IMG/VR virus record: IMGVR_UViG_3300020204_004581
Direction: 5' to 3' (one strand)
Length of the DNA stretch: 64,000 nt
DNA from: a virus
Below the pieces are notes generated by a model, which was not told the DNA's origin, made no database searches, and worked only from the letters and a program-made list of their open reading frames with translations. This document shows positions 22,743 to 49,638 of the stretch, one piece after another. The position numbers and the translations under genes were made by a program. Every line of letters begins with the position of its first letter. Position 1 is the stretch's first letter.

Positions 22743-23695
22743 GATAATCCTATTTTATTTTCCCAAAATTCAACAAATTCTTTAACGGTTTTATCATCAA
22801 TTATTTGGAGTTCTTTTAGGTAATCTGGTGCAAGGCCAATTGTTTTGTTAGCCCAACTTATATCATCTAAACCATATGCAACACCAAACATTTGTATGGG
22901 GTTGTTTAATCGATATTCTGTAGATGTCATTTGTTTACCATAATCTTCTGATAAAGAAAAAGCGTTTTGATTTTCCTCCCAAGATGCTCCTTGGTTTAAA
23001 ATAATTGCTTTACACCCACATAATACTGCTGCTATAGTAAAAAAACTTTTTTGATCATAAGTTAAAAAGTATTCATATTTGTTGAGTTGTTCTCTCAGGT
23101 AGTCGAAAGCACCACTTGTTTTCCATTCCCCTAAATCAAATGAGTTAAAATATTTGAATATTTCATGTCCGTTTGGAGGTGTGTTCTTATGTAATAAATG
23201 ACAAAAGCCTTTTCTGCTTTCATTATTTATGACATATAACTTATCAAAATAATAATTTAAAACTGTTAGTTTTCTTTTAATAACACTCTTGAATGTCTTG
23301 AAGTCTCCAAAATTAAAATAAACATCATTATCACCATACATTTCCTCGATATGTTTTTCGGTGTGATATAAAATCCACCTTGAAACGTGTTGGGTGTTAA
23401 ATGGATTACCTTCAATAATTTGAGGATATATTGATATTGTTTTGTTTATAGGGTAGTGGAAGGTTTCCCAAGTCCAATCTGTTTCAGGATGATTAAGTCT
23501 ATTGCCCTGAGATTTAATTATTTTTATATTTTCATGTGGAAATTCAGGTTGACAAAATATGAATACATTATGTCCGGTTTCAGCCAGCTTAAAAGCTAAT
23601 TTATGCAAGGCAACAATTCCTCCTGTCATAACCTGAGCAAAATTTACATGTAATCCAACAATAAAGTTTAACTTATCGTTATCAGGTAATTGCAT
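22739..23695 (-). CDS. putative glycosyltransferase (GT-B-like)
   Basis: N-terminal TGGIVALHKLA..L..GHNV motif and C-terminal F.TYD..SF...AA.LCGC; sits in the sugar cluster. Confidence 0.55.
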   Translation of the reverse strand: MQLPDNDKLNFIVGLHVNFAQVMTGGIVALHKLAFKLAETGHNVFIFCQPEFPHENIKIIKSQGNRLNHPETDWTWETFHYPINKTISIYPQIIEGNPFNTQHVSRWILYHTEKHIEEMYGDNDVYFNFGDFKTFKSVIKRKLTVLNYYFDKLYVINNESRKGFCHLLHKNTPPNGHEIFKYFNSFDLGEWKTSGAFDYLREQLNKYEYFLTYDQKSFFTIAAVLCGCKAIILNQGASWEENQNAFSLSEDYGKQMTSTEYRLNNPIQMFGVAYGLDDISWANKTIGLAPDYLKELQIIDDKTVKEFVEFWENKIGLS

Positions 23696-24285
23696 TATTT
23701 AATTATTTTTGCCGGTACTCCAACGTATATTCCTGGTTCATTAATGTTTTTTACTACTCCGGCATTTAATCCTATAGTAACATTATCGCAAATAGTTATT
23801 TTTTGTCTAACAGAAGCATTCGTTCCAAAATAAACACATTCTCCTATATTACAATTACCTGATATTTTAGCACCAGGAGCAGTTGTAAAATAATCACCAA
23901 TTCTACAATCATGTCCTATAGTAGTATGTAAATTTAAATGAGTATGTTCACCAATTATACAATTAGTAGTTATAACAGCACCAGCACATACAATACTGCC
24001 TTTTCCAATTTCTACATCATTACCTAAAATTTCTGCTGATGGATGAATATAGCTAAAATATTTGGTTTCTTTAGGTAATCGACTAACTATTTCTTTTCTT
24101 GCTACTCCATCACCAATAGCAATTAAAACCTCATATTCATTTGGGTTGAATTCTGAAAGTGGAAAAATAAATTTGTTGTTAGGAGTATAATATTTGTCAT
24201 CAACAAAACATTTCATTATAAAATCACCGATATGGGCTTTTACTTCATCAGCAAACCCACCGGCACCAATTAGTGCTCTTTTCAT
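23695..24285 (-). CDS. NeuD/PglD-family sugar acetyltransferase
   Basis: IGAGGFA, AIGD, IHPSA, hexapeptide repeats, IGHD, GVPAK. Confidence 0.92.
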   Translation of the reverse strand: MKRALIGAGGFADEVKAHIGDFIMKCFVDDKYYTPNNKFIFPLSEFNPNEYEVLIAIGDGVARKEIVSRLPKETKYFSYIHPSAEILGNDVEIGKGSIVCAGAVITTNCIIGEHTHLNLHTTIGHDCRIGDYFTTAPGAKISGNCNIGECVYFGTNASVRQKITICDNVTIGLNAGVVKNINEPGIYVGVPAKIIK

Positions 24286-24926
24286 TGTTTATAAATTTCG
24301 AATTTTGATAGATCAGGATATGGTAATTCTAAATCTTCATTATGTTTAGGGTTACCTTTTAAATCATAAAACTGAGTCATCATCAACAACCCTCTAACTG
24401 CTAATTCTGGCATCATATAAAAATTCCATCCTAACATATCAAAATGATCATCATGGTATGAGGTTTCTCTTCTACCACTGAATCTAGCGCGTTTAAACCA
24501 TAGCATAGCTTCATAATCATCAGTTAATATAGCTCCACCTTTACTTAATTTAAGCGTTTTATAGGGACCAGTAAACGACACACACATATGAGTTCCATAA
24601 ACATACATGTCTGTAGTAAATCGTAATGCTGAATCTATAACATTGCTTGGAAATAATCTATATGCTCCTTTAATTGTATTTCCTTCAACAGGAGTGAAAT
24701 TGACTTTATAACCAGCATGGATGATTTCGCAAGGAACTGAAGGATATGTTCTTGACGGACAATCTATAAACTCGGTCTCAAATGATTTTTTTATATTTTT
24801 TTCGTAATAGAGAGCTAAGAAAAGTGCATTACTCATATTATCAAGTGCAATTGCATATGGTGCACCTGTATAATCACATAAAGCTTTTTCGAAGTCTTCG
24901 GTAATTTTGTATACTCCTTGAGCCAT
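24282..24926 (-). CDS. DegT/DnrJ/EryC1/StrS-family PLP sugar aminotransferase (short form)
   Basis: FEKALCDYTGAPYAIAL, IDSA, SFTGPYK (PLP Lys), GGAILTDD, GWNFYM. Confidence 0.85.
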   Translation of the reverse strand: MAQGVYKITEDFEKALCDYTGAPYAIALDNMSNALFLALYYEKNIKKSFETEFIDCPSRTYPSVPCEIIHAGYKVNFTPVEGNTIKGAYRLFPSNVIDSALRFTTDMYVYGTHMCVSFTGPYKTLKLSKGGAILTDDYEAMLWFKRARFSGRRETSYHDDHFDMLGWNFYMMPELAVRGLLMMTQFYDLKGNPKHNEDLELPYPDLSKFEIYKQ

Positions 24927-24990: not shown

Positions 24991-27276
24991 ATGACCAAAA
25001 TATACGGACACGGTTCTTATGTAGGAAACACCGGATATAACCAACATACAAGAGATTTCTTTAGACATCTTTCAAAGTATTACCAAATTAAATTTAGAAA
25101 CTTTACAGTCGGCAACTCGTGGAAAGGTTACAACTTAACTCCTCACGATGGTGAGCATTATTTCAATAAGACTGATAGGGAAATACTATACGAACAAATT
25201 CTATGGGATAATAGAGAACAAGGAAAAAGAAGTAACTACAAAATATATCCCGACCCTACAAAAGAATTTGATCATGATCTGAATATTGTTCTATGTGAAA
25301 CAAACCATCACCTTTTCTACGATGAATATGATGGTCCAAAAATCGCCTATAATGTTTGGGAATCAACCTTACAACCTCAGGGATATTTTAATAAATTATT
25401 GGAGTTTGATGAGTTGTGGGTACCATCCAAGTGGCAAAGAGATTGTACAATTGCTCAAGGGTATCCTACAAATAAAATCAAAGTCGTTCCTGAAGGTGTT
25501 GACGTACATACATTCTATCCCGATGAAACCATAACTCATCCACTTACAAAAGATAAGTTTACTTTCTTTGTAGCTGGTAGATGGGATTATAGAAAATCAA
25601 CCAAAGAAATAATTGAAACTTTTATAAAAACATTCGATAAAAAAGCACCTGTCGAACTGATTATTTCTGTGGACAATCCATTCTCAAATGATGGTCTTAA
25701 GACAACCGAGGATCGATTGAAAGATTTTGGTCTTGTGGATGACCGAATTAGAATTTTACATTTCCCTCCGAGAGATGAATATATCAGTTTGCTAAAATCT
25801 TGTAGTGTATTTGTTTCATGTGCCAGATCTGAAGGTTGGAACCTACCTTTAATTGAAGCGATGGCTTGTGGAACTCCTTCAATATATTCTGATTGCTCAG
25901 GTCAATTGGAATTTGCATCAGGTCGTGGAATTCCTGTTAAAATCAGTCACGAACTTCCTGTAAGTGCCAGTACATATAACCATTTCAATGAGAATGTTGG
26001 AAATTATTATGAACCTGACTTTCAGGACCTTTCTGAAAAAATGTTGCTAGCATATGAGAAATACGAAACATTCAAAAAACTTGCAATCGTTGAATCAAAA
26101 TACATTAGAGAAGAATTCAGTTGGGAAAATGTTGCTGAAATAGGATACGATACTATTTCCAAATTCATGGACAAACAAAACAGTTTTCCAAAGAAACCTA
26201 TTGAGAAAAACAAAATTAATGTATCTTATTTGGACGGACCGAGAGTTGAAATCTTAGGTAAAAAATCTGAAACTTATAAAGTAGAATTTATCAACAAGGA
26301 TACAGGAGATGTAGTGTATTCGGAAATTATCAAAAACAACATGTGGGCCGCTTCAAGTAAGAAATATTTTATACCATGGCAAATAAAAATTAATGGATCT
26401 GTTGTAGATGAATTGAATTTGGAAGGAAAAGAAGTAATGATTTGTTTGGAGTCAAAAAGTTTGGGTGACACCATAGCATGGACCCCATACGTTGTAGAGT
26501 TTCAGAAAAAACATAAGTGTAAAGTAATATTCTCGAGTTTCCACAATCATTTCTTCGAAAAACTTCAAGCTTACAAAGACATCAAATTTATAAAACCAGG
26601 TCAGTCTCATTCCTGTCACGCACTTTATAGGATAGGGTGGTTCAAAAAGGATGGAAGATGGGAGGATTATGACAAATATCCAACTCAAGTTAATACGATT
26701 CCCTTACAACAAACTGCAACAGATATTTTAGGACTGCCATACGAAGAAGTTAATTACGGTTTGGACTTTCCACCATCCAAAAGACCTATTGAAAAACCAT
26801 ATGTGGTATTCGGTCCAAATGCAACTTCAGGATGCAAAGAATGGGATTACGAAAATTGGTCAACTCTCTCAAAAATGTTGAGAGAAATTGGCTACGAAGT
26901 TGTTACACTAACACAAATAGAGTTTCATTTACCAAATACTAAAAATATTAACGGTAAAGGTCTTGAGGTAGCCGCGAACTATCTACATCACGCTTCTGCT
27001 TTCATCGGTCTCGGGTCAGGTCTTTCTTGGTTCAATTGGGCTATAGGAAAAAAGACTTTCATGATCAATGGGTTTACAAGACCCGGACATGAATTCAATT
27101 CAAATTGTGTTAAAATATTCAATGATAACACCTGCATATTCTGTTGGAATGATGAGGTACATGTTTTTGATGCTGGAGATTGGGATTGGTGTCCTGTCTA
27201 TAAAGGAACGAAAAAACAACACGTTTGTCAAAGATCAATAACACCTATAAATGTTTTCAACACATTAAATTTATGA
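24991..27276 (+). CDS. fusion of a GT4 glycosyltransferase and an Aah/TibC-type (BAHT) protein O-heptosyltransferase
   Basis: N half: GRWDYRK, SEGWNLPLIEAMACG (GT4 EX7E). C half from about 26212: BAHT N-terminal beta domain, SLGDTIAW, FIGLGSGLSW, and the iron finger CIFCWN..DWDWCP..QHVC. Confidence 0.88.
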   Translation: MTKIYGHGSYVGNTGYNQHTRDFFRHLSKYYQIKFRNFTVGNSWKGYNLTPHDGEHYFNKTDREILYEQILWDNREQGKRSNYKIYPDPTKEFDHDLNIVLCETNHHLFYDEYDGPKIAYNVWESTLQPQGYFNKLLEFDELWVPSKWQRDCTIAQGYPTNKIKVVPEGVDVHTFYPDETITHPLTKDKFTFFVAGRWDYRKSTKEIIETFIKTFDKKAPVELIISVDNPFSNDGLKTTEDRLKDFGLVDDRIRILHFPPRDEYISLLKSCSVFVSCARSEGWNLPLIEAMACGTPSIYSDCSGQLEFASGRGIPVKISHELPVSASTYNHFNENVGNYYEPDFQDLSEKMLLAYEKYETFKKLAIVESKYIREEFSWENVAEIGYDTISKFMDKQNSFPKKPIEKNKINVSYLDGPRVEILGKKSETYKVEFINKDTGDVVYSEIIKNNMWAASSKKYFIPWQIKINGSVVDELNLEGKEVMICLESKSLGDTIAWTPYVVEFQKKHKCKVIFSSFHNHFFEKLQAYKDIKFIKPGQSHSCHALYRIGWFKKDGRWEDYDKYPTQVNTIPLQQTATDILGLPYEEVNYGLDFPPSKRPIEKPYVVFGPNATSGCKEWDYENWSTLSKMLREIGYEVVTLTQIEFHLPNTKNINGKGLEVAANYLHHASAFIGLGSGLSWFNWAIGKKTFMINGFTRPGHEFNSNCVKIFNDNTCIFCWNDEVHVFDAGDWDWCPVYKGTKKQHVCQRSITPINVFNTLNL

Positions 27277-27998
27277 TAGACTTGAGTAACTTCAATTGGG
27301 GTTGGATGGATAAACCGACCGAAAGAACTTTAACTAGTGGTAACACGACCAAACCCTATAGTTTGTGGCACAAAGATGCAATAACAAAAGAAATTTTTGA
27401 AGACAAAATGTATGAAAAGTTTTTTTCAGTCGAAGAAGATGATGTTGTTTTGGATATAGGTGCTAGTATTGGTCCTTTCACTTACTCAATTTTGCCAAAG
27501 AAACCTAAACACGTATATTGTTTTGAACCAAGTCCATCTGAAATAGACACACTAAGATTGAATACAAAGAATGGTCCTGTGACCGTTGTTGATAAAGGAA
27601 TTTCAGATGTTGAGGGTGATATTGAGTTTAACTTGTTCGGACTAGATCTATCATCGAACCTTGCTAAATCCACAACTTTTGATAAAATCAGAGAGGAGTA
27701 TAACATAACTAAAATAGACTTTTTAAAGACTGATTGTGAAGGGGGAGAATACAGCATTTTCAACAACAAAAACTTCTTCTGGATTAAAGAAAATGTCAAA
27801 AAAATAGTTGGTGAGTGGCATCTCGAAAATCCAGAAAGAAAACAACAATTCAGAGTTTTTAGAGACACCTACCTAAGGTTATTTCCGAAATCACATGTTT
27901 ATTCAGTAGACGGTGTCGACATTAAATGGGACCTTTGGAATGAACATTTCTTGGAATATTACAAACAAGTAATTCTATACATTGATAATAGGGACTAA
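27273..27998 (+). CDS. FkbM-family SAM methyltransferase
   Basis: ATG 27273 overlaps the upstream TGA; VLDIGASIG, CFEP, IDFLKTDCEGGE. Confidence 0.9.
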   Translation: MIDLSNFNWGWMDKPTERTLTSGNTTKPYSLWHKDAITKEIFEDKMYEKFFSVEEDDVVLDIGASIGPFTYSILPKKPKHVYCFEPSPSEIDTLRLNTKNGPVTVVDKGISDVEGDIEFNLFGLDLSSNLAKSTTFDKIREEYNITKIDFLKTDCEGGEYSIFNNKNFFWIKENVKKIVGEWHLENPERKQQFRVFRDTYLRLFPKSHVYSVDGVDIKWDLWNEHFLEYYKQVILYIDNRD

Positions 27999-28732
27999 GG
28001 GGTTGCAACTCCTCTTTTTGAAACTACGATAGATGCCATTTTGTTTGCATGTATAATGGAATCACCAACATTTTTGGTTCTATAATATTCCAAAATAAAT
28101 GCTGACGTAAAAGTGTCACCAGCTCCACTTACATCAATCGTTTCTTTTGGATCAGGACTTTTGTAAATCACCCCATCAAATCTGGCACCCTTTGAACCTA
28201 AGGTTGTAATAATATTTATACACTCTTTCAAATCTTTATTATTATCACATTCATACTCATTAAGTTTGACGAATGTAAATGAATCAATAATCTCCTTATT
28301 TAGTTTTTTCTTTGAGTCAAGAATTGAAAGTTTAGCTGCCTTTCCAATTTGGATAAGTCTATCATTAGACAAAAACCCCTTATCATAATCACTCACTATG
28401 ACAAGATCTACATTTGACATTAAATTGGTTATAGAGGTATTCAAATTAAATTCTTGTATGTTATTTTCTCCTTCATCAACTCTGAGAAACATGTGATTAC
28501 TTTTTTTGTCCACGTATCTTGTTTTGAAAATGGGTTCCTTTTGACAAAGATGTACAATATCAATCTTTGGGTTCATAGCCGAAACATTTTTTACAACATT
28601 ACCAGACATACCAGGATTTCTGGTTTCTTCAATCGGAGTTATAATAGGTACCGGAGCCTCGGGTGATAATCTTTTGGAATTTGCATAAATGAAAATGTCA
28701 GTACATGTTTCACCAATCACTACTATTTTCAT
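27995..28732 (-). CDS. HldE/RfaE domain I-like heptose-7-phosphate kinase (PfkB family)
   Basis: IGETCTD, RLSPEAPVP, KTR, LRVD, SDYDKG, DVSGAGDTF. Confidence 0.9.
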   Translation of the reverse strand: MKIVVIGETCTDIFIYANSKRLSPEAPVPIITPIEETRNPGMSGNVVKNVSAMNPKIDIVHLCQKEPIFKTRYVDKKSNHMFLRVDEGENNIQEFNLNTSITNLMSNVDLVIVSDYDKGFLSNDRLIQIGKAAKLSILDSKKKLNKEIIDSFTFVKLNEYECDNNKDLKECINIITTLGSKGARFDGVIYKSPDPKETIDVSGAGDTFTSAFILEYYRTKNVGDSIIHANKMASIVVSKRGVATP

Positions 28733-29129
28733 AATTCAAGATTTTTGTTGTGGAGTATAAAGGTAATTTTTCAAAGAAGACAAGTTTTTTGGCATGTTCT
28801 GATCCATAAACTATTTGATCTTTATAGTCATCACCTATGACCATAATATCAGGTTGAAAATCCTTGACGCAATCAATCAGTTCTTGTCTCGAATTAAATA
28901 ATACTACCTCTTTGACAAACCTTAATGATTCAAGCATTTTTTTTCTATCTTCTTGATTATTGAATGGTCGATTAACACCTTTAAGTTCTTTTACTCTCTT
29001 ATCTGTGTCTAACCCTACTCGTACTTCTCCAAAGGAAGATGCAAACTCCAGTAGGTGTATATGACCGACATGTAAAACGTCGAATGTCCCATTTACCCAA
29101 ACCTTAATATTAGATTTCTCTATATTCAT
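28710..29129 (-). CDS. HldE/RfaE domain II-like heptose-1-phosphate nucleotidyltransferase
   Basis: NGTFDVLHVGH, LKGVNRP, GDDY, YSTT. Confidence 0.88.
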   Translation of the reverse strand: MNIEKSNIKVWVNGTFDVLHVGHIHLLEFASSFGEVRVGLDTDKRVKELKGVNRPFNNQEDRKKMLESLRFVKEVVLFNSRQELIDCVKDFQPDIMVIGDDYKDQIVYGSEHAKKLVFFEKLPLYSTTKILNYENSSDW

Positions 29130-29203
29130 AATTTAACTTTCCGATTAGATAGTGGAGCTCGTTGTCCTGACCTCGAACATCCCATGAACTCATACATTAT
29201 CAT
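29126..29203 (-). pseudogene. 25-aa mini-ORF, possibly an in-frame deletion remnant
   Basis: MIMYEFMGCSRSGQRAPLSNRKVKL*, with ATGA overlaps at both ends. Confidence 0.45.
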
Positions 29204-29505
29204 ATCTCTTCGATTCTTTTAGATTTATCACAAATGTATAAATCGTAGTCAGGTTTTTGGTTCATAATTAATTCTGTAAATTTACATCCCCAATCTTTTA
29301 ACTGTTTTTTTGTTATATCAGTGTGGTCTACCTTTGTTGACATTCCTCGGGCGGTGTAATAAATTATTCTATGACCTTCGTCGTATAACTTGTTAATTTT
29401 TTCAATGTTTTCATATAAAGGTTGTGCATCTGAATATGGTTTGGATATGGTACAAATAGTGCCATCAATATCAACGTAAATTATTTTTGACTGTCTCCCT
29501 TCCAT
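29200..29505 (-). CDS. minimal HAD-family phosphatase (capsule-biosynthesis type)
   Basis: YVDIDGT, YTARG, KP.YDLYICDK. Confidence 0.88.
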   Translation of the reverse strand: MEGRQSKIIYVDIDGTICTISKPYSDAQPLYENIEKINKLYDEGHRIIYYTARGMSTKVDHTDITKKQLKDWGCKFTELIMNQKPDYDLYICDKSKRIEEI

Positions 29506-29885
29506 ACTCTATAAGAATCTGAATCAAAATGTTGTGTTGATACTTCGAACACTTCTCCATCTGTTAATGCCTCCAATTGGTGTGGTTGACCTGGTAATTG
29601 TCTTACAGTATCTCCAGGTTTCAAATTGATTTCCATTACCTCGGCAGTTTCAACATCAATCCATCTATAAATAAATTGACCTAAATTGACATACCAAGTT
29701 TCATCCTTGATCATATGGTAGTGCATAGAAAACTTAGCACCTTTCTTGAAGACTAAAACTTTACCACAATATAGTGGGTCATTTATGATTATAATTTCAT
29801 GTCCCCATCCCTTAGGAATTTTGCATTCGGGACATTCATGTACGTTAATTACTGTTGGTTTTTTCATTTTGAACTTTTGTTTCAA
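29481..29885 (-). CDS. cupin, sugar(-phosphate) isomerase-like
   Basis: KGWGHE, SMHYH..KDETW, PHQL, EVST..FDSDSYR. Confidence 0.85.
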   Translation of the reverse strand: MKQKFKMKKPTVINVHECPECKIPKGWGHEIIIINDPLYCGKVLVFKKGAKFSMHYHMIKDETWYVNLGQFIYRWIDVETAEVMEINLKPGDTVRQLPGQPHQLEALTDGEVFEVSTQHFDSDSYRVWKGDSQK

Positions 29886-29918: not shown

Positions 29919-29946
29919 AAAAAAGGGAGGTTTAATCCTCCCTTTT
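29919..29946 (-). terminator. intrinsic terminator (potentially bidirectional)
   Basis: aaaagggagg-tttaat-cctccctttt 10-bp stem, 11 nt downstream of the stop at 29958. Confidence 0.85.
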
Positions 29947-29957
29947 AGTTTATAAAT

Positions 29958-32900
29958 TTATCTTTGGTATTCAACTTTAATTTTATCAATATCTTTACGT
30001 TCACCGAAGATTAAATAAGAGACATTTATATCACCTGTTGTCGAATCAATGTAAACCTTGTTATCTTCAACTTTCAATATAAAATGTTGAGTTCCGTTTC
30101 CGATTGGAGTAAGTTGTACTGTAATTGACTCTTCATGAACTAATCCTGTCCAATATTCAGGTAACTCAATAACATTTTTGTTGGTATTGCCTCTAAGGTA
30201 AACCCCATTTTCAGGTCCTTCCAATACACCGTATCTCAGTCTGAAACCTTCTTTTGTTGGGTGTGTAATATCAAAGGACTTTTGGGTCGCGGAGAAGTTT
30301 CCATCGATTATGAAATCTGTACCATCCCATGTTACTTTCTCCTCGCATTGAATATCCTGAGATCCAGTACATGTTAGCATGTAGTTGTTGTTGTTATTCA
30401 GAATTGTTGCAGCTCCTGATGTTCCTGAAGAACCTGAAGATCCGCTCGAACCTGATGAACCTGAACTACCTGAAGTACCACTAGATCCTGATGTACCTGA
30501 TGAACCTGAAGATCCACTTGTTCCACTAGATCCTGATGTTCCTGAAGAACCTGAAGATCCGCTCGTACCTGAGGAACCTGAGCTACCTGAAGTACCACTA
30601 GATCCTGAAGTACCTGATGAACCTGAAGATCCGCTCGTACCTGAAGAACCTGAAGATCCACTTGTTCCACTAGATCCTGATGAACCTGATGTTCCTGAAG
30701 AACCTGAAGATCCGCTCGAACCTGAACTACCTGAAGTACCACTAGATCCTGATGTACCTGATGAACCTGATGTTCCTGAAGAACCTGAAGATCCGCTCGA
30801 ACCTGATGAACCTGAACTACCTGAAGTACCACTAGATCCTGAAGTACCTGATGAACCTGATGTTCCTGAAGAACCTGAAGAACCTGAAGATCCGCTCGTA
30901 CCTGATGAACCTGAACTACCTGAAGTACCACTAGATCCTGAAGTACCTGATGAACCTGATGTTCCTGAAGAACCTGAGCTACCACTTGTTCCTGAAGACC
31001 CTGAGCTTCCTGAAGTTCCACTTGTTCCTGAAGAACCTGAGCTACCACTTGTTCCTGAAGACCCTGAGCTTCCCGAAGTTCCATCTGTTCCATTACTACC
31101 ACTTGTTCCTGAGCTTCCGCTAGTACCCGAACTACCACTTGTTCCTGAAGAACCTGAAGATCCGCTCGAACCTGATGAACCTGAACTACCTGAAGTACCA
31201 CTAGATCCTGATGAACCTGATGTTCCTGAAGAACCTGATGAGCCTGAGCTTCCCGAAGTTCCATCTGTTCCATTACTACCACTTGTTCCTGAGCTTCCAC
31301 TAGAACCTGAAGTGCCACTTGTTCCTGAAGAACCTGAGCTACCACTTGTTCCTGAAGACCCTGAGCTTCCTGAAGTTCCACTAGATCCTGAGGTACCTGA
31401 TGAACCTGATGTTCCTGAAGAACCTGAGCTACCACTTGTTCCTGAAGACCCTGAGCTACCACTTGTTCCTGAAGACCCTGAGCTACCACTCGATCCTGAA
31501 GTCCCATCTGTACCATTACTACCACTTGTTCCTGAAGTGCCACTAGACCCTGACGAACCACTGGTACCGCTTGAACCTGATGATCCACTTGTACCACTGG
31601 ATCCTGATGTTCCTGAGGAACCACTTGTGCCACTAGATCCTGAAGATCCGTCTGTACCGTTACTACCACTTGTTCCTGATGTTCCAGAACTTCCTGATGA
31701 ACCACTCGTACCTGAACTTCCTGATGTTCCAGAGGTTCCACTAGATCCTGAAGATCCGCTCGTGCCGCTTGAGCCTGAGCTACCTGAGCTACCATCAGTT
31801 CCTGATGAACCCGAAGAGCCTGAGCTACCTGATGTTCCTGAACTACCTGAGCTACCTGATGTTCCTGAGGAACCACTTGTGCCGCTAGATCCTGAAGATC
31901 CACTTGTGCCGCTAGATCCTGAAGATCCACTTGTGCCGCTAGATCCTGAACTACCATCAGTTCCTGATGAACCCGAAGAGCCTGAGCTACCATCAGTTCC
32001 TGATGATCCTGAGCTACCTGATGTTCCTGAGGAACCACTTGTGCCACTAGATCCTGAAGATCCACTTGTGCCGCTAGATCCTGAAGATCCACTTGTGCCG
32101 CTAGATCCTGAACTACCATCAGTTCCTGATGAACCCGAAGAGCCTGAGCTACCATCAGTTCCTGATGATCCTGAGCTACCGCTTGTTCCTGATGAACCCG
32201 ATGAGCCAGATGTACCTGAGCTACCACTTGTTCCTGATGAACCAGATGTTCCTGAGGTTCCGCTAGAGCCTGATGTTCCAGATGAACCAACACAAACTCC
32301 TTGATATGTAATTGAAAAACCTACGAGGTCTGGACCGGAAACTGTTCCAACTATCGCACAAATTTCTTGTGTTGTACCGTTTGCGATAGAAGCACTAACT
32401 GATGTTCCTGAACAATCAGTATACGTGTAATTTTGGGAAACTCCAGTTGTATTCGAAATTAAAAAACTACCACATGTTTGTCCACTAGTTCCTGATGTGC
32501 CAGATGTTCCTGAGCTACCACTTGAACCACTTGTTCCTGAGCTTCCGCTAGAACCAGATGTTCCTGATGAGCCAGATGTTCCTGAAGAACCTGAGCTACC
32601 ACTTGTACCTGAAGAACCTGAGCTACCACTAGTTCCTGAAGAACCAGATGTCCCTGAAGAACCATTTGTTCCTGATGTTCCATCTGTACCATTACTACCG
32701 CTTGTTCCTGAAGAACCACTTGTACCTGAGCTTCCTGATGTCCCACTTGAACCGTCTGTACCATTACTACCTGAAGTACCAGAAGTTCCTGAAGATCCGC
32801 TTGTACCACTTGATCCTGAAGTACCATCTGTACCGTTGGAGCCTGACGTACCTGAGGATCCACTTGTACCACTTGATCCTGAAGTACCATCTGTACCATT

Positions 32901-35900
32901 ACTACCACTTGTTCCTGACGTTCCCGATGAACCAGAAGTTCCTGAAGAACCTGATGTTCCATCTGTACCATTACTTCCACTTGTTCCTGATGTACCAGAT
33001 GAGCCAGAAGTTCCGCTCGAACCACTTGTACCATCTGTACCGTTGCTTCCTGAAGTACCAGAAGTTCCTGAAGATCCACTTGTTCCGCTAGATCCTGAAG
33101 TGCCATCTGTACCGTTGCTTCCTGAAGTACCAGAAGTTCCTGAAGATCCACTTGTTCCGCTAGATCCTGAAGTGCCATCTGTACCATTACTTCCTGATGT
33201 ACCAGATGAACCAGAAGTTCCGCTCGAACCACTTGTTCCATCCGTACCATTACTTCCTGAAGTGCCTGATGTACCAGATGAACCAGATGTTCCTGAGGAA
33301 CCACTTGTTCCGTCTGTACCGTTACTACCACTTGTTCCTGATGTGCCAGATGATCCAGAAGTTCCTGAAGAACCTGAGGTACCATCTGTACCATTAGATC
33401 CTGAAGTTCCTGATGTTCCACTTGAACCAGATGTTCCTGAAGAACCACTTGTTCCGTCTGTACCGTTACTTCCACTTGTTCCTGATGTTCCACTCGAGCC
33501 AGATGTTCCTGAAGAACCAGATGTCCCTGAAGAACCATTTGTTCCTGATGTTCCATCTGTACCATTACTACCACTTGTTCCGGAAGATCCACTTGTACCG
33601 CTAGATCCTGAAGTTCCTGAAGAACCTGATGTTCCATCTGTACCATTACTTCCGCTTGTTCCTGATGTACCTGATGAGCCAGAGGTTCCTGAAGAACCTG
33701 ATGTTCCATCTGTACCATTACTTCCGCTTGTTCCTGATGTACCTGATGAGCCAGAGGTTCCTGAAGAACCGCTTGTTCCATCCGTACCATTACTACCACT
33801 TGTTCCTGATGTGCCAGATGATCCTGATGTACCTGAGCTACCATCAGTTCCTGACGAGCCTGAACTACCTGAAGTGCCTGAACTACCTGAAGTACCATCA
33901 GTTCCTGATGTACCTGAGCTACCACTTGTTCCTGATGAGCCAGAAGTTCCTGAGGAACCTGAGCTTCCACTTGTTCCTGATGAACCAGAAGTTCCTGAAG
34001 AACCTGAGCTACCGCTTGTTCCAGATGAACCTGAGCTTCCTGAGGAACCACTTGTTCCACTCGAGCCTGATGTTCCAGAACTTCCAGCATCGGCTACTAA
34101 ATTCCAATCAGCTCCTCCTGCTGGTATTTCGTTTTGATTATCATTTATAGCAATGTATGAGCTTCCACTATAATATACAACATCATTCCTTGAGTAAAAT
34201 GTACCCATGGAGAACTCTCCCTCCCATGCGAAACTTGTTCCTGAAGAACCACTTGTTCCACTAGATCCTGAAGATCCACTCGTACCGCTAGAGCCTGAGC
34301 TACCTGAAGTACCTGAGCTACCATCAGTTCCTGATGAGCCTGATGAGCCTGATGTTCCTGAACTACCATCAGTTCCTGATGTGCCTGAGCTACCATCAGT
34401 TCCTGATGTTCCTGAAGAACCACTTGTCCCACTAGATCCTGATGTACCTGATGAGCCTGAGCTACCATCAGTTCCTGATGAGCCTGATGAGCCTGATGTT
34501 CCTGAACTACCATCAGTTCCTGATGTGCCTGAGCTACCATCAGTTCCTGATGTTCCTGAAGAACCACTTGTTCCACTAGATCCTGATGTACCATTAACAC
34601 CACTTAAACCTGATGTTCCTGATGTACCTGAGCTACCATCAGTTCCTGACGAGCCTGAACTACCTGAAGTACCTGAACTACCTGAAGTACCATCAGTTCC
34701 TGATGTACCTGATGAGCCAGAAGTTCCTGAAGAACCGCTTGTTCCATCCGTACCATTACTACCACTTGTTCCTGATGTGCCAGATGATCCTGATGTGCCT
34801 GAGCTACCATCAGTTCCTGACGAGCCTGAACTACCTGAAGTACCTGAACTACCTGAAGTACCATCAGTTCCTGATGTACCTGATGAGCCAGAAGTTCCTG
34901 AAGAACCGCTTGTTCCATCCGTACCATTACTACCACTTGTTCCTGATGTGCCAGATGATCCTGATGTGCCTGAGCTACCATCAGTTCCTGATGAGCCTGA
35001 TGAGCCTGATGTTCCTGAACTACCATCAGTTCCTGATGTGCCTGAGCTACCATCAGTTCCTGATGTTCCTGATGATCCACTTGTTCCACTAGATCCTGAT
35101 GTACCTGATGAACCTGATGTTCCTGAGCTACCATCAGTTCCTGATGAGCCTGATGAGCCTGATGTTCCTGAACTACCATCAGTTCCTGATGTGCCTGAAC
35201 TACCATCAGTTCCTGATGTTCCTGAAGAACCACTTGTTCCACTAGATCCTGAAGATCCACTCGTACCGCTAGAGCCTGAGCTACCTGAAGTGCCTGAGCT
35301 ACCATCAGTTCCTGATGAGCCTGATGAGCCTGATGTTCCTGAACTACCATCAGTTCCTGATGTGCCTGAGCTACCATCAGTTCCTGATGTGCCTGAAGAA
35401 CCACTTGTTCCACTAGATCCTGAAGATCCACTCGTACCGCTAGAGCCTGAGCTACCTGAAGTGCCTGAGCTACCATCAGTTCCTGAAGTACCTGAGCTAC
35501 CATCAGTTCCTGATGTACCTGAGCTACCTGAAGTACCTGAGCTACCATCAGTTCCTGATGTTCCTGAAGAACCACTTGTTCCACTAGATCCTGATGTACC
35601 TGATGAACCTGATGTTCCTGAGCTACCATCAGTTCCTGATGAGCCTGATGAGCCTGAACTACCATCAGTTCCTGATGTGCCTGAGCTACCATCAGTTCCT
35701 GATGTTCCTGAAGAACCACTTGTTCCACTAGATCCTGAAGATCCACTTGTGCCGCTAGATCCTGAACTACCATCAGTTCCTGATGAACCCGAAGAGCCTG
35801 AGCTACCATCAGTTCCTGATGAACCCGAAGAGCCTGAGCTACCATCAGTTCCTGATGATCCTGAGCTACCATCAGTTCCTGATGTTCCTGAAGAACCACT

Positions 35901-37823
35901 TGTTCCACTAGATCCTGAAGATCCACTTGTGCCGCTAGATCCTGAACTACCATCAGTTCCTGATGAACCCGAAGAGCCTGAGCTACCATCAGTTCCTGAT
36001 GAACCCGAAGAGCCTGAGCTACCATCAGTTCCTGATGATCCTGAGCTACCTGAAGTACCTGAGCTACCATCAGTTCCTGATGTTCCTGAGCTACCATCAG
36101 TTCCTGATGAGCCTGATGAGCCTGATGTTCCTGAACTACCTGAAGTACCAGAAGAACCATTTTGATTTACTATGTTAATAGTACCAATCATACCCGCATG
36201 ATTAGCACATTGATATACTATACTGCTTGGAGCATCCGCTGGAACTCTATAAATTATTAAAACACTAGTGTTAGCTTTTCCATTTACAGGATCGTTGTTG
36301 GTTGTACCCGGCACAGCTGATGTATCACCTGATGATAATCTTAAAGCAAACGGATGACTTGTTGAAACAGCACTTACATTAAAGTAATACAACTGTCCCC
36401 TTACTATAGTAAGAGTCGGAAAGTTACCAGCATATCCACTAATAGTATAATTTGAACCTGCACTAGTTACTGTAAATAATTGACCGCCTTCAATACCACT
36501 TGTTCCACTAGATCCTGAAGATCCACTCGTACCGCTAGAGCCTGAGCTACCTGAGCTACCTGAGCTACCTGAGCTACCTGAGCTACCATCAGTTCCTGAT
36601 GAGCCTGAGCTACCATCAGTTCCTGATGTTCCTGAAGAACCACTTGTTCCACTAGATCCTGATGTACCTGATGAACCTGATGTTCCTGAACTACCATCAG
36701 TTCCTGATGAACCCGAAGAGCCTGAGCTACCATCAGTTCCTGATGAACCCGAAGAGCCTGAGCTACCATCAGTTCCTGATGTTCCTGAAGAACCACTTGT
36801 TCCACTAGATCCTGATGTACCTGATGAACCTGATGTTCCTGAACTACCATCAGTTCCTGATGAACCCGAAGAGCCTGAGCTACCATCAGTTCCTGATGAA
36901 CCCGAAGAGCCTGAGCTACCATCAGTTCCTGATGTTCCTGAAGAACCACTTGTTCCACTAGATCCTGATGTACCTGATGAACCTGATGTTCCTGAACTAC
37001 CATCAGTTCCTGATGAACCCGAAGAGCCTGAAGTACCATTAACCCCACTTATACCTGAAGTTCCACTTGTTCCTGATGAACCTGAGCTACCACTTGTTCC
37101 TGAATTGATCCCTGTCACCTGTACGGAGGTTCCATCACTATTATTCAAAGTAAGTGTAGATGTCCCACTATTGTAAGTTCCTCCGGTTACTGTGCCTGTA
37201 AACCCTGTAATTGAAACTGATGTTCCATCATTATCTGATAAAACTAAAGTTGTAGTCGCAGAAAAATATGTACCACCTGTAATTACGGTGTCGTTCATAT
37301 TTGCAATTCTCCAACGTGCATTTGCTCTAGTAACCCCACCAACACCTTCAATTGTAGATCCTGTCCATACATTTACGAAATTTTGACCTGCAACTGTATT
37401 TGTATAACACTGATATCCCGTTTCTGAGTCTCCAACCAATGAACCCGAAGCTTCCGCAGCATCCCACAATGCGGCGTAGTTGTCTATCTCATATTGATAC
37501 GTCGTCTCAGCAGAGATGACGTATACCATCATACCTAAACGTCTTCTACCACAAGAAATCTCGTCGGTTTCTATGGTCACTGCGTTTGGTGAAGAAAGCG
37601 GTGTTCCATATGTGAAATTAATTGGTATTGTATTTCCTGAATACAAAATTGTACCTGAACTACCATCAGGAATCGTAAATTCGAGGTCCTGATGAGAAAA
37701 AACTTCCATGTAGCCTCCAATGGAGTACACGCTGAAGTTGGTACCTGTATTGTTATCTAACGTGACGGTATCTGCGCCTTGTAAGATAACTGCTGAAGTG
37801 GGATTTCGATACTCAAAGCTCAT
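29958..37823 (-). CDS. giant Gly-X-X (GSS/GTS/GTD/GSN) repeat fibre protein with inserted globular modules
   Basis: 2621-aa uninterrupted ORF with Gly at every third position over about 2000 aa. Inserts are cupredoxin-like, CBM5/12-like and Cys modules. The C-terminal KSFDITHP..LRYGVLEGPE.GVY.RG domain is typical of aquatic phage fibres. Confidence 0.85.
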   Translation of the reverse strand: MSFEYRNPTSAVILQGADTVTLDNNTGTNFSVYSIGGYMEVFSHQDLEFTIPDGSSGTILYSGNTIPINFTYGTPLSSPNAVTIETDEISCGRRRLGMMVYVISAETTYQYEIDNYAALWDAAEASGSLVGDSETGYQCYTNTVAGQNFVNVWTGSTIEGVGGVTRANARWRIANMNDTVITGGTYFSATTTLVLSDNDGTSVSITGFTGTVTGGTYNSGTSTLTLNNSDGTSVQVTGINSGTSGSSGSSGTSGTSGISGVNGTSGSSGSSGTDGSSGTSGSSGTSGSSGTSGSSGTSGTDGSSGSSGSSGTDGSSGSSGSSGTDGSSGTSGSSGTSGSSGTSGSSGTSGTDGSSGSSGSSGTDGSSGSSGSSGTDGSSGTSGSSGTSGSSGTSGSSGTSGTDGSSGSSGTDGSSGSSGSSGSSGSSGSSGTSGSSGSSGTSGIEGGQLFTVTSAGSNYTISGYAGNFPTLTIVRGQLYYFNVSAVSTSHPFALRLSSGDTSAVPGTTNNDPVNGKANTSVLIIYRVPADAPSSIVYQCANHAGMIGTINIVNQNGSSGTSGSSGTSGSSGSSGTDGSSGTSGTDGSSGTSGSSGSSGTDGSSGSSGSSGTDGSSGSSGSSGTDGSSGSSGTSGSSGSSGTSGSSGTSGTDGSSGSSGTDGSSGSSGSSGTDGSSGSSGSSGTDGSSGSSGTSGSSGSSGTSGSSGTSGTDGSSGTSGTDGSSGSSGSSGTDGSSGTSGSSGTSGSSGTSGSSGTSGTDGSSGTSGSSGTSGTDGSSGTSGTDGSSGTSGSSGSSGTSGSSGSSGTSGSSGTSGTDGSSGTSGTDGSSGTSGSSGSSGTDGSSGTSGSSGSSGTSGSSGSSGTSGSSGTSGTDGSSGTSGTDGSSGTSGSSGSSGTDGSSGTSGSSGTSGSSGTSGSSGTSGTDGSSGTSGTDGSSGTSGSSGSSGTDGSSGTSGSSGTSGTSGSNGTDGTSGSSGTSGSSGTSGTDGTSGSSGTSGSSGSSGTDGSSGTSGSSGTSGTSGSNGTDGTSGSSGTSGSSGTSGTDGTSGSSGTSGSSGSSGTDGSSGTSGTSGLSGVNGTSGSSGTSGSSGTSGTDGSSGTSGTDGSSGTSGSSGSSGTDGSSGSSGTSGSSGTSGSSGTSGTDGSSGTSGTDGSSGTSGSSGSSGTDGSSGTSGSSGSSGTSGSSGSSGTSGSSGTSFAWEGEFSMGTFYSRNDVVYYSGSSYIAINDNQNEIPAGGADWNLVADAGSSGTSGSSGTSGSSGSSGSSGTSGSSGSSGTSGSSGTSGSSGSSGTSGSSGTSGSSGTSGTDGTSGSSGTSGSSGSSGTDGSSGTSGSSGTSGTSGSNGTDGTSGSSGTSGSSGTSGTSGSNGTDGTSGSSGTSGSSGTSGTSGSNGTDGTSGSSGTSGSSGTSGSSGTSGSNGTDGTSGTNGSSGTSGSSGTSGSSGTSGTSGSNGTDGTSGSSGTSGSSGTSGTSGSNGTDGTSGSSGTSGSSGTSGTSGSNGTDGTSGSSGTSGSSGTSGTSGSNGTDGTSGSSGTSGSSGTSGSNGTDGTSGSSGTSGSSGTSGTSGSNGTDGTSGSSGTSGSSGTSGTSGSNGTDGTSGSSGTSGSSGTSGTSGSNGTDGTSGSSGTSGSSGTSGTSGSNGTDGTSGSSGTSGSSGTSGSNGTDGTSGSSGTSGSSGTSGTSGSNGTDGSSGTSGSSGTSGSSGTSGSNGTDGTSGTNGSSGTSGSSGTSGSSGSSGTSGSSGSSGTSGSSGTSGSSGSSGTSGSSGSSGTSGTSGTSGQTCGSFLISNTTGVSQNYTYTDCSGTSVSASIANGTTQEICAIVGTVSGPDLVGFSITYQGVCVGSSGTSGSSGTSGTSGSSGTSGSSGTSGSSGSSGTSGSSGSSGTDGSSGSSGSSGTDGSSGSSGTSGSSGSSGTSGSSGSSGTSGSSGTSGSSGSSGTDGSSGSSGSSGTDGSSGSSGTSGSSGSSGTSGSSGSSGTSGSSGTSGSSGSSGTSGSSGSSGSSGTDGSSGSSGSSGTSGSSGSSGTSGTSGSSGTSGSSGSSGTSGTSGSNGTDGSSGSSGTSGSSGTSGSSGTSGSSGSSGTSGSSGSSGTSGTSGSNGTDGTSGSSGSSGSSGTSGSSGSSGTSGSSGSSGTSGSSGTSGSSGTSGSSGSSGTSGSSGSSGTSGTSGSSGSSGTSGSNGTDGTSGSSGSSGSSGTSGSSGSSGTSGSSGSSGSSGSSGSSGTSGSSGTSGSSGTSGSNGTDGTSGSSGSSGTSGSSGSSGTSGTSGSSGSSGTSGSSGSSGTSGSSGTSGSSGTSGSSGSSGTSGSSGSSGSSGTSGSSGTSGSSGTSGSSGSSGSSGSSGSSGTSGSSGTSGSSGTSGSSGSSGSSGSSGTSGSSGSSGTSGSSGSSGTSGSSGSSGTSGSSGTSGSSGSSGTSGSSGSSGTSGSSGTSGSSGSSGTSGSSGTSGSSGSSGSSGSSGSSGTSGAATILNNNNNYMLTCTGSQDIQCEEKVTWDGTDFIIDGNFSATQKSFDITHPTKEGFRLRYGVLEGPENGVYLRGNTNKNVIELPEYWTGLVHEESITVQLTPIGNGTQHFILKVEDNKVYIDSTTGDINVSYLIFGERKDIDKIKVEYQR
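30410..37100 (-). repeat. 9-nt-periodic coding repeat with higher-order duplications
   Basis: For example 35701-35870 equals 35881-36050 (180-nt period); the blocks starting at 34630 and 34801 have a 171-nt period. Confidence 0.9.
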
Positions 37824-47909: not shown

Positions 47910-49638
47910 CCACTATAGGTTTGACTACTTTATCTCCTGTGTTTATGCTAAACCCACTCAACGGTCCGAATTTGGGACCTTCGCTTATGACTCCTCCAAG
48001 ATCATACCCTCCGTCCGGTATTAGTCTAAATTGAGATGCGTTGAATGGATAATGTGAAAAATTTAAAAAAGGATAATTAACTCCTCTGTCCGCCTCATCG
48101 ATAAAACCATACTCATAAATGTCTCTCCACATAAACTGTTCATATGCGTTTGAATAAAAAGCCCAAAAAGGTATTTGATCAACGTTGTAGAGTTCCCCTG
48201 TTTCAATATAATTTGAAAATACTCTAATCACCATACCAATATGTGGTTGGTAATAATATCCGCTTGGATTTGTATTTGTGATTGGTTCACTTTTGAATAC
48301 ATCTTGGTTGTATTTAATCTTATGATAATATGGTGATATTATTCTCTCTGACTGAGTTACATCATTCCATTCACACCAATCTCCACAGATTGTGTCTCCC
48401 GATTTCAGATCCTTATTATAATAAAATTCCTCAGTTGATCCATTAGTTTTTGTATAAGAAGAATATCCGATGTTGGAATTTGACTTGAGGTTGTTACTGT
48501 CCCAATATAAATTGTTTCTTTCTGTTATGTTGAATTCCCAACCTTCTTTTAGTCCTGTTTCTTGTGTTGGCTTATTGAAATATCCAGTAAAACCTTTATT
48601 GATAATTGTGAGAAATATCTCATTTAGGGGTCTTTTCTGATTGTCCAAAATATTATCAATATTCAGGTCGTAGTTTGCAGTGAATGTGTATACGGTGGAT
48701 GCGTTCTTTTGGGAAATTCTTGATATATTGTTTGGGGTTAACGAGGAAAATTCAAACTTCTTGTTTGCGGTAAATGGTACTTCCTCAAATCCAGTTTTTG
48801 TTACAACAATATCATTAACGTTTGTGATAATCTTGTGCATTTTTACATAATACGTGGACTTTGATTCACCTGAATTTGTTATATCAACAATCTTTTTGAA
48901 AGTTCCCTTTGCATTGTTTGCAAATGTCGTACCAGTATATCCAACATTTGTTAGATTGAATATGTAAGTTTCTGACCCAAATGTACCATCACCGAGTGTG
49001 TTAACTTGGAATAGATTATTTCCGTCATACTTTAAAGACAATTCTACATAATCTCCTATCTGTAAGTTGTGTTCACTAATACAAATAAATGAAATGTAAT
49101 TTGTACCATCAAACTTCATATTTTTAACAACAAAAGGAATACCATCCCCTGATAGCCATTCAATTTCGTTAATTCCATCCGTCCAAAACATCTGTTTTGT
49201 ATAATTGTTCTCTTGTGGTAAACTTAAGTAATAAGTCCAATTATAAGTGTAAGCACTTTTAGCAACATAACTGATATGTTGATCCTGTATGTTAGGTCTA
49301 AAAAATTCAAACTCATAATATTGAGGAAACCCTCTCCAAATACCATTCACTAAAGATTTCTGAGCATCAACATAGTATAGGTTGTATAGAAATGGAATGT
49401 ATTCAGTTGTGCCAGTGTAGGAGTTTTCGTAAATCGGGCTGACCTTAAAAGTAGGTCTGAAAGTTGTTGAGGCTTGTCTTTCGTCATTGAACAAAACGGC
49501 GAGGTTAACAGAGGCAATCCGATCATATTCTGTTAGTTCGTTTTCTTTCGATTTAATTGAAACTTTGAGACTTTGATCTACAGTTGGTGCAGATTTGAAT
49601 CTCAACCTACTTGGTACTATGGTTGTTGTTCCGTTCAT
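47896..49638 (-). CDS. virion structural protein (putative)
   Basis: Coupled 580-aa ORF in the baseplate cluster. Confidence 0.6.
   Translation of the reverse strand: MNGTTTIVPSRLRFKSAPTVDQSLKVSIKSKENELTEYDRIASVNLAVLFNDERQASTTFRPTFKVSPIYENSYTGTTEYIPFLYNLYYVDAQKSLVNGIWRGFPQYYEFEFFRPNIQDQHISYVAKSAYTYNWTYYLSLPQENNYTKQMFWTDGINEIEWLSGDGIPFVVKNMKFDGTNYISFICISEHNLQIGDYVELSLKYDGNNLFQVNTLGDGTFGSETYIFNLTNVGYTGTTFANNAKGTFKKIVDITNSGESKSTYYVKMHKIITNVNDIVVTKTGFEEVPFTANKKFEFSSLTPNNISRISQKNASTVYTFTANYDLNIDNILDNQKRPLNEIFLTIINKGFTGYFNKPTQETGLKEGWEFNITERNNLYWDSNNLKSNSNIGYSSYTKTNGSTEEFYYNKDLKSGDTICGDWCEWNDVTQSERIISPYYHKIKYNQDVFKSEPITNTNPSGYYYQPHIGMVIRVFSNYIETGELYNVDQIPFWAFYSNAYEQFMWRDIYEYGFIDEADRGVNYPFLNFSHYPFNASQFRLIPDGGYDLGGVISEGPKFGPLSGFSINTGDKVVKPIVDECE

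Follow-up and report, generated by a model that had tools for sequence, protein, structure and literature searches.

The described systems closest to a four-gene operon that we analysed at positions 27995-29885 of a 64,000-nucleotide stretch of viral DNA (IMG/VR record IMGVR_UViG_3300020204_004581; "the window" hereafter means this whole stretch) are the canonical pathway to ADP-L-glycero-beta-D-manno-heptose (GmhA, HldE or HldA/HldC, GmhB, HldD) and the phage pathway to UDP-D-arabinose, which serves the arabinosyl-5-hydroxycytosine DNA of HY126, RB69 and DLP3 (PMC13326640). The canonical heptose pathway follows the same four- or five-step logic as the one we propose for the operon, whose kinase and nucleotidyltransferase (NT) are of the HldE-domain families, whose sister cassettes carry an HldD-like epimerase, and which would likewise feed GT9- or TibC-type transferases. 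Instead of the SIS-fold GmhA and the HAD-IIIA phosphatase GmhB, however, the operon has a 128-aa cupin and a 101-aa capless HAD, its kinase is ~70 aa shorter than HldE domain I and separate from the NT, and the window is without HldD. The UDP-D-arabinose pathway is phage-encoded as well, runs in the identical order of isomerase, anomeric kinase, distal phosphatase and NT, and contains AfhF, a homolog of the HAD. It differs in using AfhE where the operon has PfkB and cytidylyltransferase-like proteins, and an SIS protein where the operon has a cupin; furthermore, the sugar here is probably a heptose, and the likely acceptor a protein or glycan rather than DNA. On the comparisons given below, we lean slightly towards the view that the four genes make nucleoside diphosphate (NDP)-heptose by means of the cupin and the mini-HAD, in place of GmhA and GmhB.

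Among viruses, the T4-GC 304-308 clusters of cyanomyophages consist of the same five families, whose order varies, with proteins 33-50% identical to those of the window, where the epimerase is missing and a TibC-type transferase adjoins the genes. With regards to the cupin, the type II phosphomannose isomerase (PMI) domain (PF01050, the C-terminus of ManC/CpsB/AlgA) and the archaeal cupin PMIs (7ZVY, 7ZVM) share its His/His/Glu/His site; the window cupin, in contrast, misses PF01050, has a C-terminal motif of its own and is found in an HldE rather than a ManB/ManC context. Heptose-biosynthetic enzymes have been surveyed across kingdoms (PMC11573728), and the summary of that survey reports viral makers of NDP-heptose, monodomain NTs, a tridomain form that combines isomerase, kinase and NT, and the activities of an isomerase, a kinase, a phosphatase and an NT; a cupin isomerase and an AfhF-like HAD go unmentioned in that summary.

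The four open reading frames (ORFs) are closely packed on the minus strand. They encode a metal-binding cupin of the Cupin_2 type (29481..29867; 128 aa from its ATG), proposed here as the GmhA analog; a minimal, capless HAD phosphatase with a DIDGT motif (29200..29505; 101 aa), proposed as a GmhB analog of the AfhF/TIGR01689 type; a heptose-1-phosphate NT-like protein of the HldE domain II type (28710..29129; 139 aa; CTP_transf_like, rfaE_dom_II); and a short PfkB kinase of the HldE domain I type (27995..28732; 245 aa; rfaE_dom_I), proposed as a heptose-7-phosphate 1-kinase. Kinase and NT overlap by 23 nt and HAD and cupin by 25 nt, with a spacing of 70 nt between NT and HAD. The coupled operon described in the sequence-only reading, an earlier note on this DNA, is thus real by both ORF and family evidence. 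A longer cupin ORF (29481-29885; 134 aa) would begin at an alternative TTG, yet the ATG at 29867 is the more likely start because homologs mostly have 127-129 aa.

Among NCBIfam families, the kinase matches TIGR02198 (rfaE_dom_I) best, with 114.3 bits against 39.8 for ribokinase as the next, a score far under the equivalog cut-off of 345. In an alignment of 7 phage kinases, N158, E161 and G203-A-G-D206 are invariant, corresponding to the NxxE and GAGD catalytic motifs of PfkB enzymes, and the blocks RLSPEAPVP, SDYxKG and GAGDTF are kept as well. Likewise, TIGR02199 (rfaE_dom_II) is the best cytidylyltransferase-like family for the NT (91.5 bits, far under its cut-off of 181.5; TagD next with 68.7), which also matches Pfam CTP_transf_like with 58.9 bits. 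Its translation has the nucleotide-binding motif HVGH and a C-terminal STT (YSTTK), without the exact (F/L)xxGRSTT form that is tied to NTP promiscuity in the summary of the heptose-enzyme survey (PMC11573728). By these profile scores both proteins are HldE-like, each being far nearer to an HldE domain than to other families.

For the 101-aa HAD, HAD families of Pfam and NCBIfam matched weakly, and its closest solved relative is PDB 9IQW, the AfhF of phage HY126 (phmmer E 7.1e-8, residues 12-100), which is also its top match in Foldseek (33% identity, TM 0.75). Its AlphaFold2 (AF2) model has a pLDDT of 90, and D12-x-D14-x-T16, T51-A-R53, K84 and D93, which complete motifs I-IV, do not vary across 25 sequences. 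The Mg-dependent AfhF takes the 5-phosphate off D-arabinose-1,5-bisphosphate and acts between a sugar-phosphate 1-kinase and an NT: the sugar-5-phosphate is phosphorylated at C1, the distal phosphate is removed by AfhF, and the sugar-1-phosphate is then nucleotidylated (PMC13326640). Since taking the distal phosphate off a sugar bisphosphate is also the job of GmhB, we regard it as highly probable that the HAD is a GmhB analog, namely a heptose-1,7-bisphosphate 7-phosphatase. The same role had been proposed from the sequence alone, and it gains strong support from the AfhF homology, the conserved motifs and the fusions to NT and cupin described below. TIGR01689 gave 20.9 bits with the window protein and E values down to 1e-10 with relatives, none of these matches attaining the cut-off of 162. 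Membership in the GmhB family proper was ruled out by the missing TIGR00213 (GmhB, HAD-IIIA) match in the profile search and by an hhalign alignment with E. coli GmhB that covered motifs I-II only (Prob 52%); Foldseek against GmhB structures gave E about 5e-3 and TM 0.55.

The cupin, in turn, is modelled as a cupin beta-barrel (AF2, pLDDT 95) and not as an SIS fold, so that it could be only a functional analog of GmhA and not a member of its family. It matches Pfam Cupin_2 and, in part, Lyx_isomer (PF07385; 20.4 bits, gathering cut-off 20.8). In 31 sequences, H49, H51, K54, E56 and H96, which form an HxHxxKxE...H metal site, are invariant, as are K19, K36, H113, D117, S118 and R120, and the family conserves a C-terminal block, E-V-S-T-x-H-x-D-x-D-S-x-R. 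In the D-lyxose isomerase of Thermofilum, the Glu of the pair K86/E88 takes the proton while the Lys stabilises the cis-enediol (PMC8378251), and K54/E56 is the counterpart of this pair, with the Lys two residues ahead of the Glu ligand. The motif order WG...HxH...E...H...EV is common to the cupin family and the PMI-type CpsB cupin; stand-alone bacterial cupins bridge the two, being 36-40% identical to the window cupin and 32-35% to CpsB residues 364-478; and the relatives P0130 (24.2 bits) and P0194 (23.7) clear the PF01050 cut-off of 23.6. The conversion of a ketose phosphate into a manno-aldose phosphate is the chemistry of PMI and GmhA alike. An isomerase is the best-supported reading of the cupin and, in our judgement, a probable one, while the context of HldE, HldD and heptosyltransferase genes favours sedoheptulose-7-phosphate (S7P) as its substrate.

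According to our model, S7P would be drawn from the pentose-phosphate pathway or the Calvin cycle, of which it is an intermediate, and be isomerised to D-glycero-D-manno-heptose-7-phosphate by the metal cupin (H49/H51/E56/H96, with K54 stabilising the enediol), replacing the SIS-fold GmhA. The short HldE-type PfkB kinase would then phosphorylate O1 to give heptose-1,7-bisphosphate, the AfhF-like HAD would strip the 7-phosphate in place of GmhB, and the RfaE-II-like NT would make NDP-D,D-heptose from the heptose-1-phosphate. Because the window is without an HldD-like epimerase, the product is probably the D,D-heptose. Finally, the adjoining enzyme, a fusion of a glycosyltransferase family 4 (GT4) domain with a BAHT domain of the TibC/Aah type, would transfer the heptose, perhaps to a virion fibre or a host surface protein. 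More broadly, we see about an even chance for the joint proposal that the PMI-like cupin is a hitherto unrecognised second class of S7P isomerase which, next to or fused with the AfhF-like mini-HAD, forms a compact module replacing GmhA and GmhB; that this module supplies NDP-heptose in thousands of aquatic phages, large virus-like contigs, bacteria of the candidate phyla radiation and, by the cupin alone, Binataceae; and that here it feeds a phage-encoded protein O-heptosylation system.

The association of these genes is widespread, and the cupin and HAD, in many cases as one fused protein, turn up together in thousands of viral sequences and in some bacterial ones. In GenBank phages, tblastn matched 36 records with the cupin and 35 with the kinase, and these are nearly all the same cyanomyophage records; carriers include P-SSM2, P-SSM5, S-SM2, P-TIM68, S-CAM1, S-CAM3, S-SSM7 and S-T4, and their cassette is T4-GC 304-308 (P-SSM2 PSSM2_309-313). 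Our comparative set comprised 91 non-redundant phage records or loci carrying the kinase, of which the 63 that extend 4 kb or more beyond it in both directions were used for counts of co-occurrence. The cupin is present in 36 of these 63 loci, the HAD occurs without the cupin in none, and the median gap between the two genes is 6 bp. The short-chain dehydrogenase/reductase (SDR) of the cassettes is HldD-like (193 bits to TIGR02197 against 44 to GalE), and the cupin and HAD fit the parts of isomerase and phosphatase because five-gene cassettes leave just those two steps for those two genes.

Fusions point in the same direction. The best 120 longer cupin homologs include 101 HAD-cupin fusions (~230 aa), two cupin-FkbM fusions and one NT-cupin fusion (P0196), and an SDR is present in none of them. 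HAD-cupin genes adjoin a bifunctional HldE (326 bits to PRK11316) in L102, a Shapirobacteria metagenome-assembled genome, and in L176-L178, large virus-like contigs where the HAD-cupin gene lies among glycosyltransferases and no SDR was found within 7 kb. In other loci the HAD is fused to the NT, as NT-HAD in L058 and as HAD-NT in L065. In the latter (L065:11487-13664, likewise in L084), the kinase-NT-cupin trio is followed by genes for an HddA-like GHMP kinase, a GmhA-like SIS protein and the HAD::NT fusion, and this second cassette then continues with an SDR and GT25. From its gene content, the second cassette of L065 would be a more canonical heptose pathway, with the HAD as its sole phosphatase.

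The fusions also bear on a different order of steps towards the same product, in which the HAD would dephosphorylate S7P to sedoheptulose, the cupin would form free D-glycero-D-manno-heptose, the kinase would act at C1 and the NT would activate the sugar. HAD and cupin are indeed the tightest pair and the one most often fused, and with this order the HAD-cupin and kinase-NT fusions would each join consecutive steps; moreover, lyxose and mannose isomerases, which share the HxHxxKxE site, use unphosphorylated sugars (PMC8378251), and the phage kinase is the shortened form already mentioned. On the other hand, AfhF, the closest relative of the HAD, follows the kinase and uses a 1,5-bisphosphate (PMC13326640), the HAD-cupin fusions adjoin a full-length, canonical-looking HldE, and the invariant basic cupin residues K19, K36 and R120 could bind a phosphate. 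We consider this order very improbable and retain isomerisation of S7P as the first step.

As the sequence-only reading had stated, the window lacks an SIS-fold GmhA, a canonical GmhB and an HldD: six-frame tblastn with E. coli GmhA and GmhB and two phage HldD-like SDRs gave no match, and Pfam scans of 28 suitably sized ORFs revealed no SIS, HAD-IIIA or SDR domain (ten large ORFs were compared with PHROGs only, and very small ORFs as well as those of 2621 aa and 1763 aa (49635-54926) lay outside the family scans). Beyond the window, GmhA (TIGR00441) was without a match in 62 of 63 kinase-bearing phage records, including 6 complete genomes (three from isolates, the other three being records with a completeness rating of 100%), and GmhB (TIGR00213) in 5 complete phage genomes. 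The single TIGR00441-positive record is L065, whose relative L084, outside that search, has the same layout. The hosts of some of these phages would not be expected to contribute either, as marine Synechococcus, including WH8102, host of three of them, has a lipopolysaccharide (LPS) without heptose (PMC4515613), and a control genome of Synechococcus elongatus gave no TIGR00441 signal.

Bacteria provide a further view of GmhA and the cupin. In the one class that we sampled around a Binataceae-like genome (151 genomes; G144 counted in match tallies only), 21 genomes have a full-length ortholog of the cupin (~150 bits). HldE is present in 17 of the 18 ortholog-bearing genomes tested, and a GmhA-like gene in just 1 of these 17, compared with GmhA in 21 of 24 HldE-positive genomes without the ortholog (Fisher p 1.4e-7, a value that overstates independence, since the ortholog-bearing genomes are probably one lineage and the complementarity amounts to one or a few events, not 41). 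This pattern is the one expected of non-orthologous displacement. The ortholog-bearing bacteria have a weak GmhB-like HAD-IIIA protein and no mini-HAD. A second, stand-alone cupin scoring ~85 bits was seen in ~85 of the 151 genomes (e.g. L185-L190); it is without the C-terminal D-S-x-R motif and lies between the phage family and the PMI domain at the ManC C-terminus. Since 14 of 20 tested genomes with it also have GmhA, this cupin probably represents another enzyme, which might be a PMI.

The nature of the sugar is indicated by the gene that adjoins the operon (24991..27276, plus strand; 761 aa), in which a GT4 domain is fused to a TibC/Aah-type O-heptosyltransferase domain. Its residues 408-759 match TIGR04414 (hepto_Aah_TibC) with 234.8 bits, above the curated equivalog cut-off of 200, and its Pfam domains are TibC_1st, Glyco_transf_9 and Glycos_transf_1. 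Next to the cassette, 13 related loci or records likewise have a TibC/Aah-type domain, and by family the GT4::TibC/Aah-type protein likely consumes NDP-heptose. It has to be considered, nonetheless, whether the same logic serves another sugar, either, with the cupin as a PMI, from fructose-6-phosphate through mannose-6-phosphate, mannose-1,6-bisphosphate and mannose-1-phosphate to NDP-mannose, or from ribulose-5-phosphate through arabinose-5-phosphate to NDP-arabinose, the route by which phages arabinosylate DNA. The nearest named relatives of the cupin are PMI-type cupins, the nearest characterised relative of the HAD uses arabinose-1,5-bisphosphate (PMC13326640), kinase and NT remain under the HldE equivalog cut-offs, and the Binataceae cupin beside GDP-mannose 4,6-dehydratase (Gmd), to which we return below, fits a supply of GDP-mannose. 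These points are opposed by the far better match of kinase and NT to HldE domains than to other PfkB or cytidylyltransferase families, by the HldD-like heptose 6-epimerase of sister cassettes, and by the heptosyltransferases next to the genes, TibC/Aah here and GT9 elsewhere. Furthermore, the arabinose pathway has unrelated folds for its kinase/NT (AfhE) and its SIS isomerase (PMC13326640), the operon sits among fibre and glycosyltransferase genes, and no dCMP-modifying gene was found among the window ORFs scanned. The suggestion in the sequence-only reading that the sugar might not be manno-heptose hence becomes the less likely one, chiefly on account of the TibC/Aah-type neighbour above its cut-off and the HldD-like epimerase in sister cassettes; we would call mannose or arabinose unlikely.

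Several observations weigh against the production of NDP-heptose through the cupin and mini-HAD. Besides the sub-cut-off scores of kinase and NT and the probable single lineage behind the bacterial complementarity, the window cupin reaches no specific Pfam or NCBIfam family (no PF01050 and no NCBIfam match at all), and hhalign of its family against the C-terminal cupin of E. coli CpsB covered 90 columns with a Prob of just 39%. In Foldseek and VIA-align, CapF, KdgF, Thermococcus PMI and D-lyxose isomerase are indistinguishable as fold matches (Z 14.3-15.8), and quercetinase and oxalate decarboxylase are likewise within ~1.5 Z units of the top one. The kinase stands alone in 17 of the 63 phage loci, so that some phages clearly depend on host steps, and both L065 and L084 hold a GmhA-like SIS gene in addition to the cupin. 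In Binataceae, 37 of 73 cupin loci have a Gmd/SDR-type dehydratase gene no more than 3.5 kb away, which directly adjoins the cupin in L154 and L113, the loci examined closely, and HldE or GT9 genes are near the cupin only sometimes (L113, L125); with such a Gmd/SDR-type neighbour, the context fits a PMI or a keto-sugar epimerase as well.

Part of this evidence would suit a tailoring function, in which NDP-heptose is made from heptose-7-phosphate supplied by the host GmhA and the cupin acts as a CapF-like epimerase on a nucleotide keto-sugar. The top structural match of the cupin is the cupin domain of CapF, a C3-epimerase (Z 15.8, 23% identity), its profile matches Cap5F with E 9e-4, the Binataceae cupin usually adjoins Gmd and an SDR, and L065 combines the cupin with its own GmhA-like gene. 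SDR genes are, in addition, plentiful in complete phage genomes; all five that were checked carry several, so that SDR absence gave no test of this alternative. Nevertheless, the CapF/WbjC-type arrangement, with an SDR fused to or paired with the cupin, was not found, neither among the 120 longer homologs, where HAD-cupin fusions abound, nor in the window, where no SDR was detected. Half of the phage cassettes with a cupin (18/36) have no SDR within 4 kb, the cupin lies within 100 bp of one in just 3 of 31, and the HAD-cupin and HldE modules of L176-L178 are likewise without a nearby SDR. Where an SDR does accompany the cassette, it resembles HldD, which needs no helper. A supply from the host also agrees poorly with the heptose-free LPS of the cyanobacterial hosts (PMC4515613) and with ortholog-bearing bacteria that keep HldE yet lack GmhA. 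A tailoring epimerase therefore seems to us unlikely, if less so than another sugar. The earlier proposal of the cupin as the isomerase accordingly stands as the best reading, given the hole in the pathway, the fusions, the absence of GmhA and its complementarity with the cupin, and the kinship with PMI and lyxose isomerase; fold searches do not set it apart from CapF.

Heptose production by viruses is not new, since viral enzymes are reported in the summary of the heptose-enzyme survey (PMC11573728) and the cyanophage cassette has long been annotated (PMC7378029); the view that production by a virus would of itself be remarkable is thus not supported. The cassette genes have been described just as heptose or LPS auxiliary genes (PMC7378029, PMC7029224), and their labels are misleading. 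The ~110-aa "phosphoheptose isomerase" (T4-GC 306; RefSeq of P-TIM68, S-SM2 and P-SSM2, our L001, L003 and L004) is the DxDGT HAD, and T4-GC 307, labelled "cysteine dioxygenase" or "(putative) nucleotidyltransferase", is the cupin. The "phosphoheptose isomerase" label was also seen propagated into automatic ESM Atlas cluster names. The literature that we searched contained no cupin-type S7P isomerase and no phage heptosylation, and none of the cyanophage records or papers examined states a role of the cupin or HAD as substitutes for GmhA or GmhB. What appears to be undescribed is that GmhA and GmhB would be replaced by a cupin together with an AfhF-like mini-HAD, two proteins whose genes mostly lie side by side and in very many cases form a fusion.

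If this holds true, a second isomerase, unrelated to the first, and another type of phosphatase would be added to the heptose pathway, which is a drug target and yields the innate-immune agonist ADP-heptose, and surveys of heptose capacity that score gmhA or gmhB would miss many producers. The cyanophage annotation would be corrected, the "phosphoheptose isomerase" becoming a HAD phosphatase and the "cysteine dioxygenase" a likely isomerase, and heptose synthesis would become explicable in phages of hosts with heptose-free LPS and in HldE-positive bacteria without GmhA. A link to ALPK1, in contrast, is of little relevance, because the phage is from freshwater and not animal-associated.

The window is part of a T4-like freshwater myovirus. 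In family scans it also encodes an SbcC-like gp46, a gp47-type phosphoesterase, a DnaB-type helicase, a primase, baseplate wedge proteins, gp25, and RNase H-like and UvsX-like proteins, and an exact-protein look-up found proteins identical to those of the window in more than 20 metagenome contigs, some of them from Lake Tanganyika. At the nucleotide level, an exact 47-mer had no counterpart in the viral and metagenome contig collections searched, and megablast gave no match among GenBank phages. The 761-aa glycosyltransferase gene and a gene for an FkbM-family methyltransferase (27225..27998, plus strand; Methyltransf_21, TIGR01444) converge on the operon, the end of the latter overlapping the kinase stop by 4 nt. 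On the other side, a hairpin with a T-run read from the sequence (29919..29943, minus strand; 7-bp GC-rich stem) lies between the cupin start and the stop of a gene for a 2621-aa fibre-like protein (29958..37823, minus strand; an ORF of higher GC). The hairpin resembles a terminator and suggests that the cassette is its own transcription unit; it carries little weight because a consensus terminator scanner did not list it. It does seem to satisfy the stated rules of that scanner despite the lack of a report. The fibre-like protein is a weak candidate for the heptosylation acceptor, and in sister contigs with an identical cassette other genes replace it. Elsewhere in the window, a 214-aa ORF (24282-24926, minus strand) matches the DegT/PseC aminotransferase profile at positions 24-98 of 360 only and is followed by a complete NeuD/PglD-type acetyltransferase (23695-24285, minus strand). 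The shortness of the 214-aa ORF is not a sequencing frameshift, as it is kept in three Lake Tanganyika contigs (L181-L183).

Some further features were noted around related cassettes. The loci with a lone kinase include L009-L014, L033, L036, L040 and L041; their kinases are 53-56% identical to that of the window, neither an NT nor a cupin or HAD lies in the 4 kb to either side, and the L033 record is a 163-kb genome rated 100% complete, for which the absence of NT, cupin and HAD covers the 4-kb flanks only. L176 and L178 are lake-metagenome contigs of 170-320 kb that pair HldE with HAD-cupin (L176:5561-7699, L176:11785-14699), surrounded by GT11, GT2, GT25, GT92-like and DUF5672 genes and a gene for a protein of >6000 aa, and resemble a large virus that has an elaborate island of glycosylation genes. 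In P-SSM2 (L004:3738-7333), a NodU/CmcH-type carbamoyltransferase gene lies directly upstream of NT-kinase-HAD-cupin, and another is near the cupin of Binataceae in L154:3741-9480, together with SDR, GT4 and Gmd; these neighbours hint at a carbamoylated sugar as the end product. Genes for a ~400-aa transketolase/E1-like thiamine pyrophosphate enzyme, a Zn-alcohol dehydrogenase and a FabG-like reductase, finally, recur directly upstream of the kinase in S-SM2 (L003:71-2091), P-TIM68 (L001:8436-11304) and other loci (a cluster of 15 loci), a group that might supply or modify the seven-carbon sugar.

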